Source of the DNA: a virus
Taxonomy: Duplodnaviria; Heunggongvirae; Uroviricota; Caudoviricetes
Virus record (IMG/VR): IMGVR_UViG_2541047873_000007
Length of the DNA: 34,634 nt
Direction: 5' to 3' (one strand)
Shown here: piece after piece, positions 4,342 through 28,372 of the stretch
How the letters are laid out: the number at the start of each line of letters is the position of its first letter
Position numbering within the stretch: position 1 is the first letter of the stretch
Notes under the pieces: generated by a model
What the model was told of the DNA's origin: nothing
The model's database searches: none
Seen by the model: the letters and a program-made list of their open reading frames with translations, nothing else
Position numbers and translations under genes: made by a program

Positions 4342-5222
4342 ACACTCCTCGTCAGTATTCTGGCGGCCATTGCACTTAATCCCGGAGACATGCGGTTGAA
4401 TGCTGTGCCGGCGGCGTTAAGCTGCCCGGAAACGGTATCCAGAGCACCTGCAATATTTCTTTTGTCCACACCACTCAGCGCAGACTGTGCCTGCTGTACA
4501 TACGTGGCTGCTTCGCTGGCTGTTCTGGCCAGACTGATGGCATCGGGCATGGATTCAGAGAGTGCGTTAAACGCCGGAACACTTTTCCCCAGAGCCCCGG
4601 AGATATTACCCAGTCCGCTCATCAGCCCCGGCACACGGGTCAGTGCGACAACGGGGTTATCCTTCATTTTCTGTGTCACCCGAACGGCGCTGATAGTGGT
4701 CTGGAGTACAGACTGCGCCTGTTTCGCATAGTTGACGCCGTTGCGGATGAACTGCGCCACCCCTGAAGGTGAAGGAATGGCACCGGAGACCGCCCCGACA
4801 CCCGGGAGCTTCGTGCGTATTGCCGGTGGTTGCAGAGGATTTTTCGGATCACCGGTGTATTCCCGGAGAGACACGGTGGCACTGACAGCCAGCACGTTAC
4901 CGGTGCTGTCTGTCTGCTCGCTGGTTGCGGTCACATCGGTAATCACGAACCAGCCACGATAGTCACCGTTGCCGAAGACCAGCGCCAGTGCCTGATGGGC
5001 TTTCATGGCTGTTCGCAGTCTCGCCAGCTCCACATCGGGTACACAATAATGCTGATGGAAAACCAGAGTTATCTGGATTTCGTCCAGCCTGTCGCCGACG
5101 AACTGCAGGCCAGGCTTACCCCCGATGCGGGCATGCTCCGCATAATCGACGCCGAACGTGGCCTCGAAGCCGTCCCAGTAGGTAATCAGCTCAAACTCAA
5201 TATCACCCAGTACGGCAAACAT
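4338..5222 (-). CDS. Tail protein (Mu N / DNA-circularisation-like)
   Basis: 294 aa immediately downstream of the tape measure, co-directional and overlapping. Confidence 0.5.
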   Translation of the reverse strand: MFAVLGDIEFELITYWDGFEATFGVDYAEHARIGGKPGLQFVGDRLDEIQITLVFHQHYCVPDVELARLRTAMKAHQALALVFGNGDYRGWFVITDVTATSEQTDSTGNVLAVSATVSLREYTGDPKNPLQPPAIRTKLPGVGAVSGAIPSPSGVAQFIRNGVNYAKQAQSVLQTTISAVRVTQKMKDNPVVALTRVPGLMSGLGNISGALGKSVPAFNALSESMPDAISLARTASEAATYVQQAQSALSGVDKRNIAGALDTVSGQLNAAGTAFNRMSPGLSAMAARILTRSV

Positions 5223-8200
5223 CAGCGGTACTCCTTACGTTGTTTCTGAGCCAGCAGACGCTCCAGCATTTTTTCCAGCTCATGCAGGCTCATATTCAGG
5301 GCGCCAGTCAGTCCGGCAGGCGCTGTGGTTTCCCTGCCATTGAGGAAAAACTGAGGATTAAAGCTGACCTGGATACCACCAGACGTTCCACCGCCGGTTG
5401 CAGCTGCACCACGGCCTGAATATCCGGCAGCCAGGATTTCAGGCGAGGGGATACGGGGAACATCCGGTGTCATCTCATTTGCCAGACGTTGCCCTGGTAA
5501 AATCGATGCCCGGGTGGAGAGCGGAATAGCGGGCATGGAAGACAAACTATTGATTACGGCTCCGATCGCATTTTTAGCAGACGACATAAACCCATTGATA
5601 TCGGGCAACGGCATACTGAAGCGAACACCTGAAGTGTTATCCCGTATTTCTGGCCCCTGAATGCTCACGGGCATTTTGGGGAGCAGTTCACTGGCCATTC
5701 GCTGCCCGGCCAGAGCTGCAAGCGGAGTGGTCCGCTGCAGGCCAATGGCGGCCCCCTGCGCGATATTGTCACCAAAGCCCATAAACACGCGGCTCGGCGA
5801 ATGAATGCCCAGCTTTTCGCTGAACCAGCCACTGATGCTGTCACCCATTCCGGTTACACTGGATTTGAGCGACTCCCATTTGTTTTTGATACCGTTAATC
5901 AGACCGTCGACAAGATGGCCACCGAAGTCGGTGAACTTTGCCGGCAGATCAACACCAAGATATTTCAGCGCAGCTGCAAAGGCTTTATAGAGCAGACCTG
6001 CCGGCGACCAGTTAATCAGCAGCTTACCAGTTCCCGCGATACCGCCGTTAAAGGCTTCCTGAATGTCAGCCCAGCACTGTTTAAACCAGCTACTGATGCT
6101 GTCACCCATTCCGGTTACACTGGATTTGAGCGACCCCCATTTGTTTTTGATACCGTTAATCAGACCGTCGATAAGATGGCCACCGAAGTCGGTGAACTTT
6201 GCCGGCAGAGCAACGCCGAAATATTTCAGCGCAGCCGCAAAGGCTTTATAGAGCAGGCCTGCCGGCGACCAGTTAATCAGCAACTTACCAGTTCCCGCGA
6301 TACCGCCGTTAAAGGCTTCCTGAATGTCAGCCCAGCACTGTTTAAACCAGCTACTGATGCTGTCACCCATTCCGGTTACACTGGATTTGAGCGACCCCCA
6401 TTTGTTTTTGATACCGTTAATCAGACCGTCGATAAGATGGCCACCGAAGTCGGTGAACTTTGCCGGCAGAGCAACGCCGAAATATTTCAGCGCAGCCGCA
6501 AAGGCTTTATAGAGCAGGCCTGCCGGCGACCAGTTAATCAGCAACTTACCAATTCCCACAATGCCGCCGTTAAAGGCTTCCTGAATGTCTGCCCAGCGCT
6601 GTTTAAACCAGCCACTGACTGCCCCCCAGTTGCGGTAGATAAGGTAAGCTGCTGCCGCGACAGCGGTGATAACGAGACCGATGGGATTCATCATCAGCGC
6701 ACGTCCAATCCAGAGAACAGCACGTCCGGCGAGCATAATTCCGCGAACCAGCCCCCCGGAGAGCACGCCACTCAGTGTTCTGGCTCCTTTGGCGACGGCG
6801 CTAAATCCGGTCACCAGCCAGCGGAGCTTACCGCCTTGCCCCAGTGCGAGCGACAGACGAAGCCAGTTGGCCCGAAGTAAAACAGCATTTTTCCAGACAC
6901 TTACAAAGGGGGAAATAAGGAGATTCAGCCCCAGTTTGAGACCAACAGTCGCTATCTTAATCGCAAGGAGCGCACTGATGAGCTTAAAAGCCCCACTGAC
7001 AAATTGCGGGTGAGTCGCTACCCAGTGTTTTGCCCCCTGAATGAGTGGAAGCAGTTCCTGAGTCAGAGAAATAAAAGATGGAGCTAATTGATCGCCCAGC
7101 GTAATTGCCAGATCACGACTGCTGACCATAAGTGCTTTAGTGGCTTCAAGGGGAGATTTCAGCCGCTGATCATAAGCACTGGCAAGCAAATCGTTATCCG
7201 CAGCCCTGAGAGCACCGGCACGGATCTCTCGATATCTGTCCATGTTGGCCAGCATCGGGCGGATAAATGCCATGACCTGCATATCCGCGAACATATCGCC
7301 CAGACCAAAGTTTTTCGCCAGAGCCTGAAGTGCCTCATCTCTTGCCGTATCATTCTTTATTTTCATGGCTGATTTGAAGCCGGCCAGCGCTTCGGGGCTT
7401 TTGGCATTGAGGTAACGTTCTATAACACTCAACATCCCTTCAATCGGAGAGATCCCCGCAGCTTTATAACTCGCAATAGATCCCTGCAAATCAATACCCA
7501 GATCAGCAAACTGTTTCTGAGTATCGCGGGCAAAAATTTTGGTAAGAAAGTTTTTAAAATTATTGGCTGCTTCGTCGGTGGAACCTGCACCGATTTTTGC
7601 TATCTGGAGACTGGCCCCGATTTCAGCAACAGCCTCTTTTCCACTGGCAATACCCGCCATCATTGGGGCCAGGGACTGCATCCACTTGACCTGATCCGGG
7701 ATTTCAAATGACCCCTGGTCACCGGCATAAGCCATAATATTCTGAACGGCACCAAAATCTCTGGCCGCACCTTTCAGGGAGTTTTGCCAGACTGCGGCCA
7801 CTTTTGCCCAGTCCTGAGCAGACGTGCGTGTTGCCGTTGCCGCGCGGGCAATATCCGGCATCAGAAAACCGATATCTGACACATTATCAATATTGTCGCT
7901 GATGAGTGAACCCACCGCCTCCTGCAGCTCATCCTGATACTGATTGTATTTAAGCGCCCAGCCTTTTATCTGTCCGGCAAGTGCATCCCGCGTTTTATTG
8001 TCATATTTTGCGGTGATCGACATATCAATCATTTTGTCCTGAAAAGACATGGACTGCTGAACGGCAGGGGAAACCGTATGATAAACAGTCTGTGCCATGC
8101 CATACGCTTCAATCCCCTGACCATACAGCGCCATGCGGTTAGCTTTCAGCGCATCACTGGTAGCGGATGCCGCTGACAGACGGCGCTGCTGGCGCTCAAT

Positions 8201-22957: not shown

Positions 22958-23539
22958 CTAAAAAAAGAAGTGTATTATTGCCCAAACAGCTATAACGATG
23001 ATTCCCAGCCCAAGAGCCGATTCTAACTTATCTTTGGCAGTCATTTTTACTGTTGTAGCGGGCGCAGGTAAGTCTTGCTGCTGTGGATTTTCTGTTAGTT
23101 GTTTACGAGAAGAAACATCGCCCCTGTTAGTTTGCTTCATGTTGATTACAGATGCGTTATGGGCATTATCAGCAGCAATTGACTGAAGTTTTACAAAAGT
23201 TTTTGAATCTGTTTTAGCCAGAAGTAACCTATTTCCCGTAAACATTGCCTTAAAAGTGATAGTTTTTTTCGTCTTGTCCGCCGCACCAAGCAAACCTCCA
23301 ATGACCAACCCTGCACCACCAAAGATTAATCCACCAAGCAAACCTGCGCCTGCCGCCTTACCTATACGGCTTTCCTCTTCACTATCCGCAAGTTCAATCG
23401 ATAAAAGCTCTTCTTTCAGATTTAATACAATATTTTCAGGAAAGCCTTGTTTTGGTTTTTTGGCAAACACGATGGTACCGAACCCCATGCTTGCCCACCC
23501 TTTAGGAAAACTTCCTGCGATAACCTGAATCCCTGCCAT
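22958..23539 (-). CDS. Membrane protein with glycine-zipper segment (accessory)
   Basis: Central GKAAGAGLLGGLIFGGAGLVIGGLLGA and C-terminal LGLGIIVIAVWAIIHFFF hydrophobic segments; likely start ATG 23539 (AAGGTG 6 nt upstream), the track start 23548 being a GTG. Confidence 0.5.
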   Translation of the reverse strand: MAGIQVIAGSFPKGWASMGFGTIVFAKKPKQGFPENIVLNLKEELLSIELADSEEESRIGKAAGAGLLGGLIFGGAGLVIGGLLGAADKTKKTITFKAMFTGNRLLLAKTDSKTFVKLQSIAADNAHNASVINMKQTNRGDVSSRKQLTENPQQQDLPAPATTVKMTAKDKLESALGLGIIVIAVWAIIHFFF

Positions 23540-23629
23540 GTTCATCACCTTTTACATTAAAATTTCAGAACGCAGCATGATGCCGCCTTTGTCTTTTTTC
23601 TGATCCCATGGTAATTCAGCTGTTATTTT

Positions 23630-24616
23630 CTATTTAAGAATAAAACGGTATTTACTGTCAGGAGTGCTTTGCTGATCAAGTAGCAGTGAACGACATGGAG
23701 CAGTCAAAACCCGAGCATAACTACCATCAGGGCTTATGTTAATGTAACAAACCTTGCCCTTAACACTATAATTTTCGGGGACGGATGCCTTTGCTGATAC
23801 AGTAAATTTAAGGGTATGCCAGCCCGTTTTTTGCTTGTAGCTTGAAACCGAATGGAAATCATCTGAGTACTTATTTAACCCTGGAAACATGCTGCGCAGT
23901 GCGGGGATGGAATCTTCTATTATTTTATCGTTGGTTTTAATGTTAAAAACGCTGGTTTCAGTAGAAGCTACTGCTTTGGCATTTCCCCATTTACCAGCGA
24001 ACACAATCATTCCCACGAAAAATATTGCTACAAGAACTAACACTCCCCCCAACACTACTACATGAGGCTTCCGGCTTCTGGTTGGTACAGTTGCGACTGA
24101 TTTTGCACCGCTTTCCGATGGAGGTGATAGAGTTTTACTCTCATCACGAATATTCAGCAGATCATCAAAATAACCAAACACAGCCTGCAACTGCTCTTTG
24201 TCTAGGCCTTTAAGATGGGTTGTACCGAAATGCTTCAGACAGTATCTGTCACGGTCAAGACGATACCCAGGGTCAGTAAGCGCCATTATTTTGCTGACCA
24301 GAAGATTACAGTCCTTCATATTCTGGATCTGTTGTGCATATCTCTGAAGGATCTCAACCGCACCATGATAATCAGCCGCAGTCATTTCATTAACTGTTTT
24401 GGTATTAAGTTTCGTGTGGATCGTCATCCATAGCTCGCGCTTACTTTCCCCCAGATCAACCAATTCATCCATCAATCTGTGTAAATCGCGTTTTTGCAGC
24501 AACGAAATTGGTTGCTGGGCCGAAGGAAGTATGTCAGCAGAATAGTTATGAATGGTAACATCACCGCTGACAACGTTACCCACATCCCCGTTAACTGTTT
24601 GCTTCTCTTTACTCAT
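23630..24616 (-). CDS. Single-pass membrane protein with cytoplasmic N-domain and extracytoplasmic C-domain (accessory)
   Basis: 328 aa; transmembrane segment VVVLGGVLVLVAIFFVGMIVFAG; ATG 24616 overlaps the repressor stop (ATGA); AT-rich. Confidence 0.5.
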   Translation of the reverse strand: MSKEKQTVNGDVGNVVSGDVTIHNYSADILPSAQQPISLLQKRDLHRLMDELVDLGESKRELWMTIHTKLNTKTVNEMTAADYHGAVEILQRYAQQIQNMKDCNLLVSKIMALTDPGYRLDRDRYCLKHFGTTHLKGLDKEQLQAVFGYFDDLLNIRDESKTLSPPSESGAKSVATVPTRSRKPHVVVLGGVLVLVAIFFVGMIVFAGKWGNAKAVASTETSVFNIKTNDKIIEDSIPALRSMFPGLNKYSDDFHSVSSYKQKTGWHTLKFTVSAKASVPENYSVKGKVCYINISPDGSYARVLTAPCRSLLLDQQSTPDSKYRFILK

Positions 24617-25074
24617 CTTCTCTTGGTATTTTTGTTCATTATTCCACCTGTTCCTATGGTTACGTTACCTTTGATAACATTCCCCAGAACATCTCCATGA
24701 ATAACCTGTTCCGCCCGTTCTCTGGAGGAGCCAGTAGTCAAGGCCGACAAAACTGAACCTTTGACCTGTAATGGTGCCTGCCGGTAGTGCTGCAGTAACT
24801 CCATTTCATCACGTGATAAAGTTATACCTGATGACTCCCCGGTAAGAATGAACTGTACATTGGCCCCAATTCTTGCAAAGGCTGCAAGTAACTCACCTCC
24901 GGGAACAGCAACCCCTCGTTCATATTTCCCCCACATTTCTCTTGAAACGCCACAAAGGGCTGCTACTTCAGCCTGCTTGAGTGATAACCGCGAACGCTCA
25001 GCTTTGAACCGCGACGCGCAAAGAGAATCAAAATTCACATAAACCTCATTGACAATGAGAACAATAGTTCTCAT
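24613..25074 (-). CDS. XRE-family HTH repressor (phage c-like), non-LexA-type C-terminus
   Basis: HTH LSLKQAEVAALCGVSREMWGKYERG; divergent from the ner-like gene; no S24 peptidase motif visible. Confidence 0.7.
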   Translation of the reverse strand: MRTIVLIVNEVYVNFDSLCASRFKAERSRLSLKQAEVAALCGVSREMWGKYERGVAVPGGELLAAFARIGANVQFILTGESSGITLSRDEMELLQHYRQAPLQVKGSVLSALTTGSSRERAEQVIHGDVLGNVIKGNVTIGTGGIMNKNTKRR

Positions 25075-25124: not shown

Positions 25125-25313
25125 ATGACTTCCGAACAAGTTAAAAATCTCTTCCGTCAGCGTGGTATCACGTTTACCCGCTGGGCCGAAGAACACGGCT
25201 ACAGCCGCAATGAGGTCTATCGTGTTCTCAATGGACAGACCAAAGCTCGTTACGGCAAAGCCCATGAAATTGCCGTAAAACTGGGATTAAAACCCACGTC
25301 AAATGCGGCATAA
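25125..25313 (+). CDS. ner: Ner-like DNA-binding regulator
   Basis: 62 aa, ...FTRWAEEHGYSRNEVYRVLNGQTKARYGKAHEIAVKLGL..., Ner/Nlp-like; AAGGAG RBS; divergent from the repressor. Confidence 0.8.
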   Translation: MTSEQVKNLFRQRGITFTRWAEEHGYSRNEVYRVLNGQTKARYGKAHEIAVKLGLKPTSNAA

Positions 25314-26602: not shown

Positions 26603-28372
26603 ATGAATGCTGCCCTGACTGAACGACTGGTTTATGTCGCCCGCGCGGCACGTGACGCGGGGCATGGTAAACGCGGTGCAATATACGACGCTGCCTGTGC
26701 TGAACTTGGCATGTCCCGCGCCACTCTGCTGCGCAGGCTGAAGGAGGTCTCTGTGACTGATAAACGCAAAAAACGCGCTGATGCCGGACGCAGCGCCCTG
26801 ACCCGCGACGAAGCCGCGCTGATATCTGCCACACTGCGTGAGGCCACCCGCAAGAACGGTAAGCGCCTCTATTCCATCGCAGATGCAGTGGAAACCCTGC
26901 GGGCTAACGGCTTTATCACCGCAGGCAGAACAGATGAAACCACCGGTGAGTTTTTCCCGTTGTCTGAAGATGCCATCAGCCGTGCTCTGCGTAACTATGG
27001 CCTGCACCCGGAACAACTGGATGCTCCTGCACCGCATACCGAAGTGGCCAGTCTGCACCCCAATCATGTCTGGCAGATTGACGCCTCACTCTGCACGCTT
27101 TACTACCTGAGCAATGGACATAAAGGGCTGCAGGTGATGGACAGCGCGAAGTTCTACAAGAACAAGCCCGCTAACCTTGCCCGTATCGCCAGTGACCGCG
27201 TGTGGAGTTACGAGATTACCGACCATGCCAGCGGCTGGATTTACGTTGAGTATGTGACGGGCGCGGAATCAGGTGAGAACCTGTGTTCTGTGCTTATCAA
27301 CGCCATGCAGGAGCGTGGCGGCGCAGACGTGCTGCACGGCGTGCCAAAAATACTCTATCTCGACCCCGGCTCGGCAAACACCGCGGGTATGACGAAAAAC
27401 ATGTGCCGCTCACTGGGCATCGACCTGATAGCGCACAAGCCGCATAACGCCCGCGCCACCGGACAGGTGGAAAAGGCGCGAGACATTATCGAACGCAAGC
27501 TGGAGCCGGGTCTGAAGTTCCGGCCGGTTCACAGTCTGGAAGAACTCAACGCGCTGGCCGCGAAATGGCGCAGCCACTTTAACGCCACGGCTGTTCACAG
27601 CCGCCACGGTAAAACCCGCACGGATATCTGGCTGAAGATTACTGCTGAGCAGCTGAAAAAAGCGCCTTCCGTTGAGGTATGTCATGAACTGGCTGTGGCG
27701 GCACCAGAACTCCGCAAAGTCACGCCAAAACTTCGTGTCTCGTTCCGGGGCACTGAATTTGACGTATCAACGGTACCGGGCGTACTGGTTGGTGAAAAAC
27801 TGATGATTACCCGTAACCCATGGCGCAGCGATGTGGCACAGGTGGTTCTGACCGGTGAGGACGGCCACGAGACGTTCTTCCTGGTCGAAGAGGTCAGAAA
27901 GAACGAGTTTGGCTTTGCTGAAGGCGCGGCGGTATTTGGCGAAAGTTACAAAGCCCTGCCGGAAACCCCGGCACAGATGGCGGCAAAAGAAACCGAAGCG
28001 CTGGTTACCGGTACAGACAACGCCGCAGATGCAGCCGCCGCACGCAAGGCGAAGGCGCTGCCGTTCGGCGGGCGGCTTGACCCGTATAAACATATCGACG
28101 ACACCACACTTCCGGCCTATATGCCGAAGCGTGGTCAGGCCTCTGACGTACGCGGGCCGCGCACTGAACAACGTCCCATGACTCATGTGGAGGCCGCGAA
28201 AGCCCTGCGCGATAAGTTCAGCGCCGACGGCCTTACCTGGACGCCGGAACATTACCGCCAGTTAACGGCACAGTACCCGGACGGCGTACCGGAAGCCGCA
28301 CTGGATGAAGTCATGGCCACGCTGACCACACCGGCCAGCAGCAGTGTTATCAGCATTGTTAACGGCAACTGA
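26603..28372 (+). CDS. DDE transposase (integrase-core type, transposable-phage A-like)
   Basis: 589 aa; acidic residues in WQIDAS and LYLDPGSANTAG consistent with a DDE core; followed by an ATPase gene; GGAGG RBS. Confidence 0.8.
   Translation: MNAALTERLVYVARAARDAGHGKRGAIYDAACAELGMSRATLLRRLKEVSVTDKRKKRADAGRSALTRDEAALISATLREATRKNGKRLYSIADAVETLRANGFITAGRTDETTGEFFPLSEDAISRALRNYGLHPEQLDAPAPHTEVASLHPNHVWQIDASLCTLYYLSNGHKGLQVMDSAKFYKNKPANLARIASDRVWSYEITDHASGWIYVEYVTGAESGENLCSVLINAMQERGGADVLHGVPKILYLDPGSANTAGMTKNMCRSLGIDLIAHKPHNARATGQVEKARDIIERKLEPGLKFRPVHSLEELNALAAKWRSHFNATAVHSRHGKTRTDIWLKITAEQLKKAPSVEVCHELAVAAPELRKVTPKLRVSFRGTEFDVSTVPGVLVGEKLMITRNPWRSDVAQVVLTGEDGHETFFLVEEVRKNEFGFAEGAAVFGESYKALPETPAQMAAKETEALVTGTDNAADAAAARKAKALPFGGRLDPYKHIDDTTLPAYMPKRGQASDVRGPRTEQRPMTHVEAAKALRDKFSADGLTWTPEHYRQLTAQYPDGVPEAALDEVMATLTTPASSSVISIVNGN

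Follow-up and report, generated by a model that had tools for sequence, protein, structure and literature searches.

Matching peptide tags on a prophage immunity repressor and on the membrane-anchored protein encoded next to it

In Escherichia coli, motifs shared by the termini of Bab and Agp, the products of adjacent genes, have been demonstrated functionally to signal by amyloid templating, and in Bell/NLR pairs, which also share terminal motifs between adjacent genes, the gene layout was used to define amyloid-signalling motifs. Phage repressors, in turn, can be inactivated by antirepressors such as RstC (acting on RstR) and Qtip, which work by sequestration or aggregation. Flk (Fluke/RflH) lies in the cytoplasm, is anchored through its C-terminus and regulates the specificity switch of flagellar type III secretion. 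Here we describe a gene pair that touches on all three systems. It lies in a 34,634-nucleotide stretch of viral DNA (IMG/VR record IMGVR_UViG_2541047873_000007; hereafter the window), which is a transposable, Mu-like prophage of E. coli, and it encodes an immunity-repressor-type protein and a membrane-anchored partner that carry the same short motif, the former at its C-terminus and the latter at its N-terminus. The elements concerned are the following:

24613-25074, minus strand: immunity-repressor-type XRE helix-turn-helix (HTH) protein, 153 amino acids as annotated (HTH_31/HTH_3), divergent from the early operon
24652-24699, minus strand: repressor C-terminal tag HGDVLGNVIKGNVTIG, residues 126-141 (H126-G141), with three G-[DN]-V-x-x units and pLDDT <50
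24616-24642, minus strand: basic Lys/Arg-rich repressor C-terminus IMNKNTKRR, after the tag
24613-24616, minus strand: ATGA stop/start overlap of repressor and partner (4 nucleotides; translational coupling)
23630-24616, minus strand: membrane-anchored partner of 328 amino acids (phrog_10002; Pfam Flk_N), overlapping the repressor by ATGA
24542-24592, minus strand: partner N-terminal tag NGDVGNVVSGDVTIHNY, residues 9-25 (N9-Y25), conserved in homologues

A sequence-only reading of the window had placed one motif on both sides of the overlap, and both open reading frames and both peptide strings were confirmed (repressor C-terminal end ...AEQVIHGDVLGNVIKGNVTIGTGGIMNKNTKRR; partner N-terminus MSKEKQTVNGDVGNVVSGDVTIHNY). 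The best Smith-Waterman alignment of the whole repressor with the whole partner is the tag segment itself (score 55, with 11 residues identical over about 20 columns and a single gap of 1 residue), a score reached by 1 of 2,000 shuffles. The range given for the motif, 24570-24710, holds for the repressor tag, which lies fully inside it, and includes only part of the partner tag. In the six-frame translation of the window the pattern G[DN][VI]x0-2G[DN][VI] occurs twice, and the two occurrences are the two tags. The DNA of the two motif regions shows only about 72% identity, with a 3-nucleotide gap, and 7 of the 11 shared residues are specified by different codons. Codon usage and DNA identity together rule out a recent local duplication or gene conversion, so that the duplication suggested by the sequence-only reading does not hold for recent DNA history; the two tags may nevertheless descend from one ancient source.

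Homologues of both proteins were aligned, and the motif was found to be conserved in each; the outcome that had been named as counting against a shared element, its absence from homologues, clearly did not arise. In the partner, ten tag positions (G10, G13, N14, V15, V16, S17, G18, V20, I22 and Y25) are invariant across 18 full-length homologues of 44-82% identity, the named ones all from Enterobacterales, and the linker behind the tag is variable. The repressor tail HGDVLGNVIKGNVTIGxGGIMNKNTKRK is retained at 83-91% identity in homologues whose HTH identity is down to 35-40%, and quite different tails occur on homologues whose HTH domains are 75-80% identical. Because the conservation of tail and HTH domain runs separately, the tail is, as judged from these alignments, an independent module that travels with the partner and not with the DNA-binding domain. 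The tag is the best-conserved part of both proteins, although AlphaFold2 predicts it to be disordered. Tags are 14-24 residues long and contain 13-17% Gly, 11-12% Asn and no Pro, Cys or Trp; Leu makes up about 1% of them, compared with 11.5% of the remainder of the proteins. The aligned tags end 0-17 residues ahead of the repressor C-terminus and begin 1-8 residues past the partner Met; a Lys-rich end (38% Lys) follows the tag in 20 of 23 repressor tails, and the aligned motif reaches the last residue in 3.

The comparison covered 31 genome loci and 80 viral-contig loci, in each of which the repressor tail was set against the N-terminus encoded by the next gene. Repressor tails occur in at least ten flavours, and in nearly every case (about 110 loci) the N-terminus encoded next is of the same flavour, as in the following pairs:

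Repressor tail GDVLGNVIKGNVTI; next gene N-terminus GDVGNVVSGDVTI
Repressor tail FNGDISGQFAGNQIIN; next gene N-terminus FNGTAQGQFSSRDIIN
Repressor tail GNRVAGRDFNENK; next gene N-terminus QNRVAGRDFNENK
Repressor tail GHRFALGDYHE; next gene N-terminus EHRIALGDYYE
Repressor tail IGKVGQIVQADNI; next gene N-terminus IGKVGQLIQTENI
Repressor tail VSGKGNRVAGRDFNENK; next gene N-terminus TGGQNRVAGRDFNENK
Repressor tail GQRIAGRDFHEH; next gene N-terminus HNRIAGNDFHEE
Repressor tail GHRFALGDYHEN; next gene N-terminus EHRIALGDYYEH
Repressor tail FNGNIDGQVSAENIYNIG; next gene N-terminus FNHTVGQVAANNIYNIY
Repressor tail VHGGQFSTGTINNY; next gene N-terminus IHGGQFGQVINNY
Repressor tail IGKVGQIVQADNIE; next gene N-terminus IGKVGQLIQTENIG
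Repressor tail KTVNVTSQTAGRNIKN; next gene N-terminus KTVTRQSAGRDIRN
Repressor tail FHGSVGQVIKGD; next gene N-terminus FHGDTGVVAGGD

Cognate pairing was separated from permuted pairing with z = 10.3 for 45 non-redundant pairs (0 of 20,000 permutations) and with z = 8.6 for beta-type tails only (28 pairs; again 0 of 20,000); the ten flavours outside the NRxAGRDY class gave z = 5.65, and the NRxAGRDY class taken alone gave z = 3.5 (12 of 20,000). Furthermore, different codons specify 141 of the 235 residues (60%) that are common to tail and N-terminus in 23 pairs, which indicates, for these sequences, that selection is on the peptide and not on the DNA. Adjacent genes share their history, but this is in itself no reason for a tail to look like the N-terminus encoded next to it; both the within-class test and the codon analysis speak for selection on the matching. 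The further suggestion of the sequence-only reading, that the motif is a shared interaction element, thus gains strong comparative support from a motif that is near-invariant in both families and from tags that co-vary across at least ten flavours and unrelated partner families.

In most related loci the two genes show the identical 4-nucleotide overlap or are separated by gaps of 2-35 nucleotides. Three apparent exceptions to the matching were resolved as two tandem HTH genes of one tail type followed by the partner (L063), an insertion of about 650 nucleotides between the genes (L076) and a mis-called partner (L081). A frameshift or read-through fusion of the two open reading frames was ruled out, given that the tags still match at spacings of -4 to +35 nucleotides and of up to 650 nucleotides (L076). 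At L063:3400-3930 both repressor-type HTH genes end in NRIAG(R/C)DYNETKG and precede one matching Flk_N partner, such that three proteins share one tag.

The partners belong to several unrelated families and include proteins with Flk_N and a transmembrane segment, with Flk_N, a transmembrane segment and a periplasmic domain, with a zinc-ribbon and two transmembrane segments, and small proteins with two transmembrane segments; most of those outside the window are of about 200 amino acids and consist of tag, Flk_N and C-terminal anchor (phrog_5825). Common to the partners are a tag at the cytoplasmic N-terminus and a predicted membrane location, the exception being a 69-amino-acid open reading frame with no predicted transmembrane segment (L096). 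Relatives of the partner of about 200 amino acids were found in just three phage records, and consequently no experimentally studied phage is tied to the system. One Pseudomonas locus (L012:5429-7124) encodes two membrane proteins of one N-terminal tag flavour: the Flk_N partner carries FHGGVGQVAEGDINNYG, and a 130-amino-acid protein with predicted hydrophobic segments, encoded two genes further, carries FNGDVGQVSGGDIHNYG.

In the AlphaFold2 monomer model of the window's partner the first 30 residues, including the tag, are disordered and are followed by three predicted elements:

24137-24520, minus strand: cytoplasmic Flk_N helical domain, residues 33-160, pLDDT about 97
23996-24061, minus strand: transmembrane helix, residues 186-207, from the AlphaFold2 model, with a Kyte-Doolittle value of 3.05 over residues 186-204
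23633-23953, minus strand: C-terminal alpha/beta domain, residues 222-328, presumably periplasmic, pLDDT about 95, with invariant C290 and C308

The predicted helix agrees with the earlier description of the 328-residue product as a membrane protein. A fold comparison of the C-terminal domain (residues 222-328) gave no significant match. The helical domain is assigned to PF27202 (Flk_N) in the precomputed Pfam annotation, and hhalign aligned it with residues 25-146 of E. coli K-12 Flk (probability 97.1%, E = 5e-11); the NCBIfam Flk model NF007987 matched the partner with E = 2.9e-12 through one repeat, at 46.6 bits against an equivalog cut-off of 353. An exhaustive profile search with Flk_N retrieved only 232 clusters from 1.84 billion representatives, comprising Flk proper without a tag, phage-type Flk_N proteins with widely varied N-terminal tags, and proteins that combine Rha, P22_AR_N or Bro-N with ORF6C. 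These profile matches make the Flk_N domain a homologue of E. coli Flk and a remote relative of ORF6C, a domain of Ant/Rha antirepressors; weak PHROG matches of the partners to Ant antirepressors agree with the latter link. A Pfam scan of the 328-residue partner gave no ORF6C match, no Bro-N, P22_AR_N or Rha domain was found at its N-terminus, where only the 25-residue tag stands, and Pfam, NCBIfam and PADLOC returned no toxin or defence match for it.

Flk and the prophage partners have in common the homologous helical domain, its cytoplasmic orientation and the C-terminal membrane anchor. In contrast, Flk (about 333 amino acids) is encoded on the chromosome, acts at the flagellar export gate and contains two Flk_N repeats behind a Gly/Pro-rich, untagged N-terminus, whereas a single repeat and an N-terminal tag are found in the prophage proteins, together with an extra periplasmic domain in the window; this distance is also seen in the NCBIfam score. 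In the K-12 flk product (L113:1951-2946) two tandem Flk_N units seem, by eye, to be present at about residues 25-146 and 160-275; hhalign matched the first unit only, and Flk-type proteins give two matched stretches in the profile search. The K-12 N-terminus ahead of these units is Gly/Pro/Gln-rich, unlike the prophage tags.

The repressor has the HTH_3 and HTH_31 domains (E = 4.7e-7 and 8.5e-5, both over the gathering scores) and is divergent from genes for a ner-like protein, HTH_IclR, DUF3102, rve transposase and AAA proteins, which is the position of an immunity repressor. AlphaFold2 models an HTH domain (residues 17-78), a helical hairpin (88-115) and a disordered tail (119-153; pLDDT <50). 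No Peptidase_S24 domain, as in the lambda CI/LexA subclass, was matched in it (PF00717 was found in a few distant homologues only); the repressor is therefore not of the RecA-cleavable type. The annotated ATG start (25074) lacks a Shine-Dalgarno sequence, GAGG precedes a GTG at 25038, and homologues have an equivalent start, MNFDSL, for which reasons the true start is probably the GTG and the protein one of 141 amino acids. A 15-nucleotide inverted repeat (25048-25062/25067-25081), a candidate operator, would with this start lie upstream of the gene.

These observations are explained best, in what we consider a probable account if only just so, by a co-evolving homotypic beta-strand pairing tag, through which the immunity repressor would be physically joined to an antirepressor-like partner anchored in the membrane. 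Both tags are beta-prone stretches of about 15-20 residues, rich in Gly, Asn and Val and free of proline, and are predicted to be disordered in the isolated proteins. We infer that the tags bind each other directly, by homotypic beta-strand pairing in the manner of a beta-zipper or a cross-beta rung, and that this would tie the repressor to the inner membrane. The partner may then act as a membrane-tethered, antirepressor-like regulator, which on a membrane or periplasmic cue would capture or sequester its own repressor and so tip the lysogeny switch; distinct flavours would keep co-resident prophages from cross-talk. The antirepressor-like role, and with it the direction and consequence of regulation, is favoured because Flk_N is related to ORF6C, the repressor has no autocleavage domain, the partner combines a membrane anchor with a periplasmic domain, and RstC and Qtip set a precedent. 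The proposed outcome resembles that of RstC/RstR (CTXphi-RS1), Qtip/cI (VP882) and Ant (P22), in which a phage protein takes the repressor off DNA by capture or relocalization; RstR, like the window repressor, is without an S24 autocleavage domain, and Flk_N is remotely related to the ORF6C domain of Ant, Rha and Bro proteins. Known antirepressors, however, are soluble and separately regulated, whereas the candidate is anchored in the membrane, shares a transcript with the repressor and would be addressed through a homotypic tag; the Qtip paper makes no mention of a motif shared between antirepressors and repressors.

Several observations weigh against this account. The two genes are co-transcribed and translationally coupled, and a constitutive antirepressor would defeat the repressor unless it were gated by a signal, so far hypothetical. 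For Flk_N itself a mechanistic account of its function is lacking, and the link to antirepressors is remote, with the Rha/P22_AR_N/Bro-N and ORF6C proteins retrieved by the Flk_N profile at E = 1e-7 to 1e-5. Some beta-tailed repressors have no recognizable matching partner (L019, L021/L022 and L023/L103). Moreover, some repressor relatives carry a helical C-terminal domain (...LKLVVNR) in place of the beta tail and are also encoded upstream of membrane partners (L005-L009, L015-L020 and L116, ~5000-6700); these partners have an N-terminal helix (DEKLAKLADK...) and a GNINFGTQ-type stretch (IKIKGNSGNINFGTQLNIG) with no similarity to the repressor. Homotypic tagging is accordingly not the sole organization, the beta tag being one of at least two solutions, and the helical-tail pairs may represent its alpha-type equivalent.

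A stronger version of the pairing, which we regard as doubtful, holds that the tags are true amyloid-signalling motifs that switch prophage induction or immunity by prion-like templating. A partner clustered by a cue would nucleate a cross-beta fold at its N-terminus, this would template the repressor tails and draw the repressor out of solution, and the flavours would serve as orthogonal codes insulating co-resident prophages. The likeness to described amyloid motif pairs (fungal NWD2/HET-S, BASS in Bell/NLR, and BASS11 of E. coli Bab/Agp) extends to a motif, about 15-25 residues long, that is C-terminal in one protein and N-terminal in the product of the adjacent collinear gene, a tiny gene spacing or overlap, a composition of Gly/Asn/Gln with hydrophobics and no proline, and many pair-matched motif families. 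The pairs differ in their domains, a repressor with a Flk_N or small membrane protein here and a pore-forming cell-death effector with an NLR/TPR sensor there, and some flavours, for example NRVAGRDYNE, are rather charged for an amyloid core. Of the features that define FASS and BASS pairs, a motif of at least 15 amino acids at both termini, short spacing or overlap, matched families and a beta-prone composition, with motifs that are disordered in the monomer models, are all present; a cell-death effector (HeLo/Bell/Bab) with an NLR/STAND or other immune sensor is absent, with no defence-family matches. Since the partner domains differ, and the likeness is one of sequence and gene layout, we do not file the pair as a BASS member. 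The amyloid-signalling papers that were text-searched contain no mention of HTH proteins or repressors.

It is likewise unlikely, in our estimate, that the pair follows a toxin-antitoxin or abortive-infection logic, in which the partner tag would self-assemble the membrane effector, the repressor tail would keep it inactive by beta-strand capping, and loss of the repressor (through induction, degradation or phage attack) would let the membrane protein oligomerize and act on the membrane. The pair resembles type II systems with an XRE-HTH antitoxin in gene order, in the 4-nucleotide overlap with the downstream gene and in the disordered C-terminal tail as presumed binding element; the repressor gives weak matches to HipB/MqsA/PezA-type antitoxin models, the partners are small membrane proteins of several families, some loci have more than one membrane protein of the same tag (L012), and a Gly/Asn-rich, potentially self-assembling stretch is kept in the partners of helical-tailed repressors. 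However, no partner matches a known toxin or defence family, recognition would be homotypic, the HTH protein occupies a true immunity-repressor position divergent from the early operon, and the Flk_N/ORF6C relation points to regulators and not to effectors.

Lower still do we rate a common third factor (a protease, chaperone, or membrane-targeting or degradation machinery) that would recognize both tags. Disordered termini are typical degrons, ClpXP degradation of the Mu repressor is known to be controlled through that protein's C-terminal tail, and the conserved Lys-rich end behind the tag would fit such a role. A host factor, however, would impose one motif per host, whereas several flavours, always pair-matched, coexist within E. 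coli and the Enterobacterales, which makes a host-encoded common receptor unlikely; no conserved third phage gene stands beside the pair across the Mu-like and P2-like contexts. Finally, a chance low-complexity likeness or a functionless DNA repeat (duplication, gene conversion or recombination linker) is effectively excluded, for although the motifs are short and compositionally biased and one shuffle did reach the score within the window, non-cognate tails of equal composition score much lower, most shared residues are differently encoded, the tags are the best-conserved segments of both proteins, and the pairing recurs with unrelated partner families.

The pair is seen in Mu-like and P2-like prophages of Escherichia, Salmonella, Enterobacter, Serratia, Pectobacterium, Pseudomonas and Pasteurellaceae. 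Among the Mu-like prophages, those of E. coli, an uncultured relative and Pseudomonas have it at the repressor position, with a layout like the window's, the repressor divergent from the early operon, in L116 and L118. In the P2-like prophage L114, too, it is found at the repressor position, here that of the C repressor, between the early operon and int. The 2.5 kb around the pair are found with 100% identity in complete E. coli genomes, among the matches listed, and at least 80% of this region is present in 97 complete E. coli genomes; in RefSeq the repressor is WP_001259268.1 ('helix-turn-helix domain-containing protein') and the partner WP_000031883.1 ('hypothetical protein'; 97 complete E. 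coli genomes). In the window the early operon runs rightwards on the plus strand (ner-like HTH, 25125-25313; HTH_IclR; DUF3102; rve transposase, 26603-28372; AAA protein), and the minus strand carries lysis and structural genes. Two further genes lie beside the pair:

22958-23548, minus strand: third gene of the same-strand cluster, 196 amino acids (phrog_12025, function not assigned), with a glycine-zipper-like stretch, a C-terminal hydrophobic segment and no tag; related loci have other genes at this position, for example a 250-amino-acid open reading frame in L118
22444-22920, plus strand: small P-loop protein of 158 amino acids, annotated 'ABC transporter ATPase', with weak AAA_30 and SngB-like matches only; on the opposite strand, with the lysogeny cluster to one side and the holin/SLT lysis genes to the other

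A full-text literature search returned no description of a tag shared by a repressor and a membrane protein, and nothing on PF27202. What is new is a known scheme, the terminal motif shared between adjacent genes and the antirepressor acting by sequestration, with new partner types, and it is widespread and statistically solid. If the tags template by a cross-beta fold, functional amyloid signalling would gain gene regulation as a new output and would extend from cell-death effectors to a transcription factor and the lysis-lysogeny decision, and the matched flavours would offer ready-made orthogonal tags for protein-protein addressing. The pairing also provides a first, concrete idea of what the phage branch of the Flk_N family, itself poorly understood, may do. 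Repressors without a RecA-cleavable domain are found in many temperate phages, and for these the way in which they are switched off is often unclear; a tag that ties such a repressor to a membrane-anchored, antirepressor-like protein suggests an SOS-independent pathway of induction or immunity that is wired to the cell envelope.

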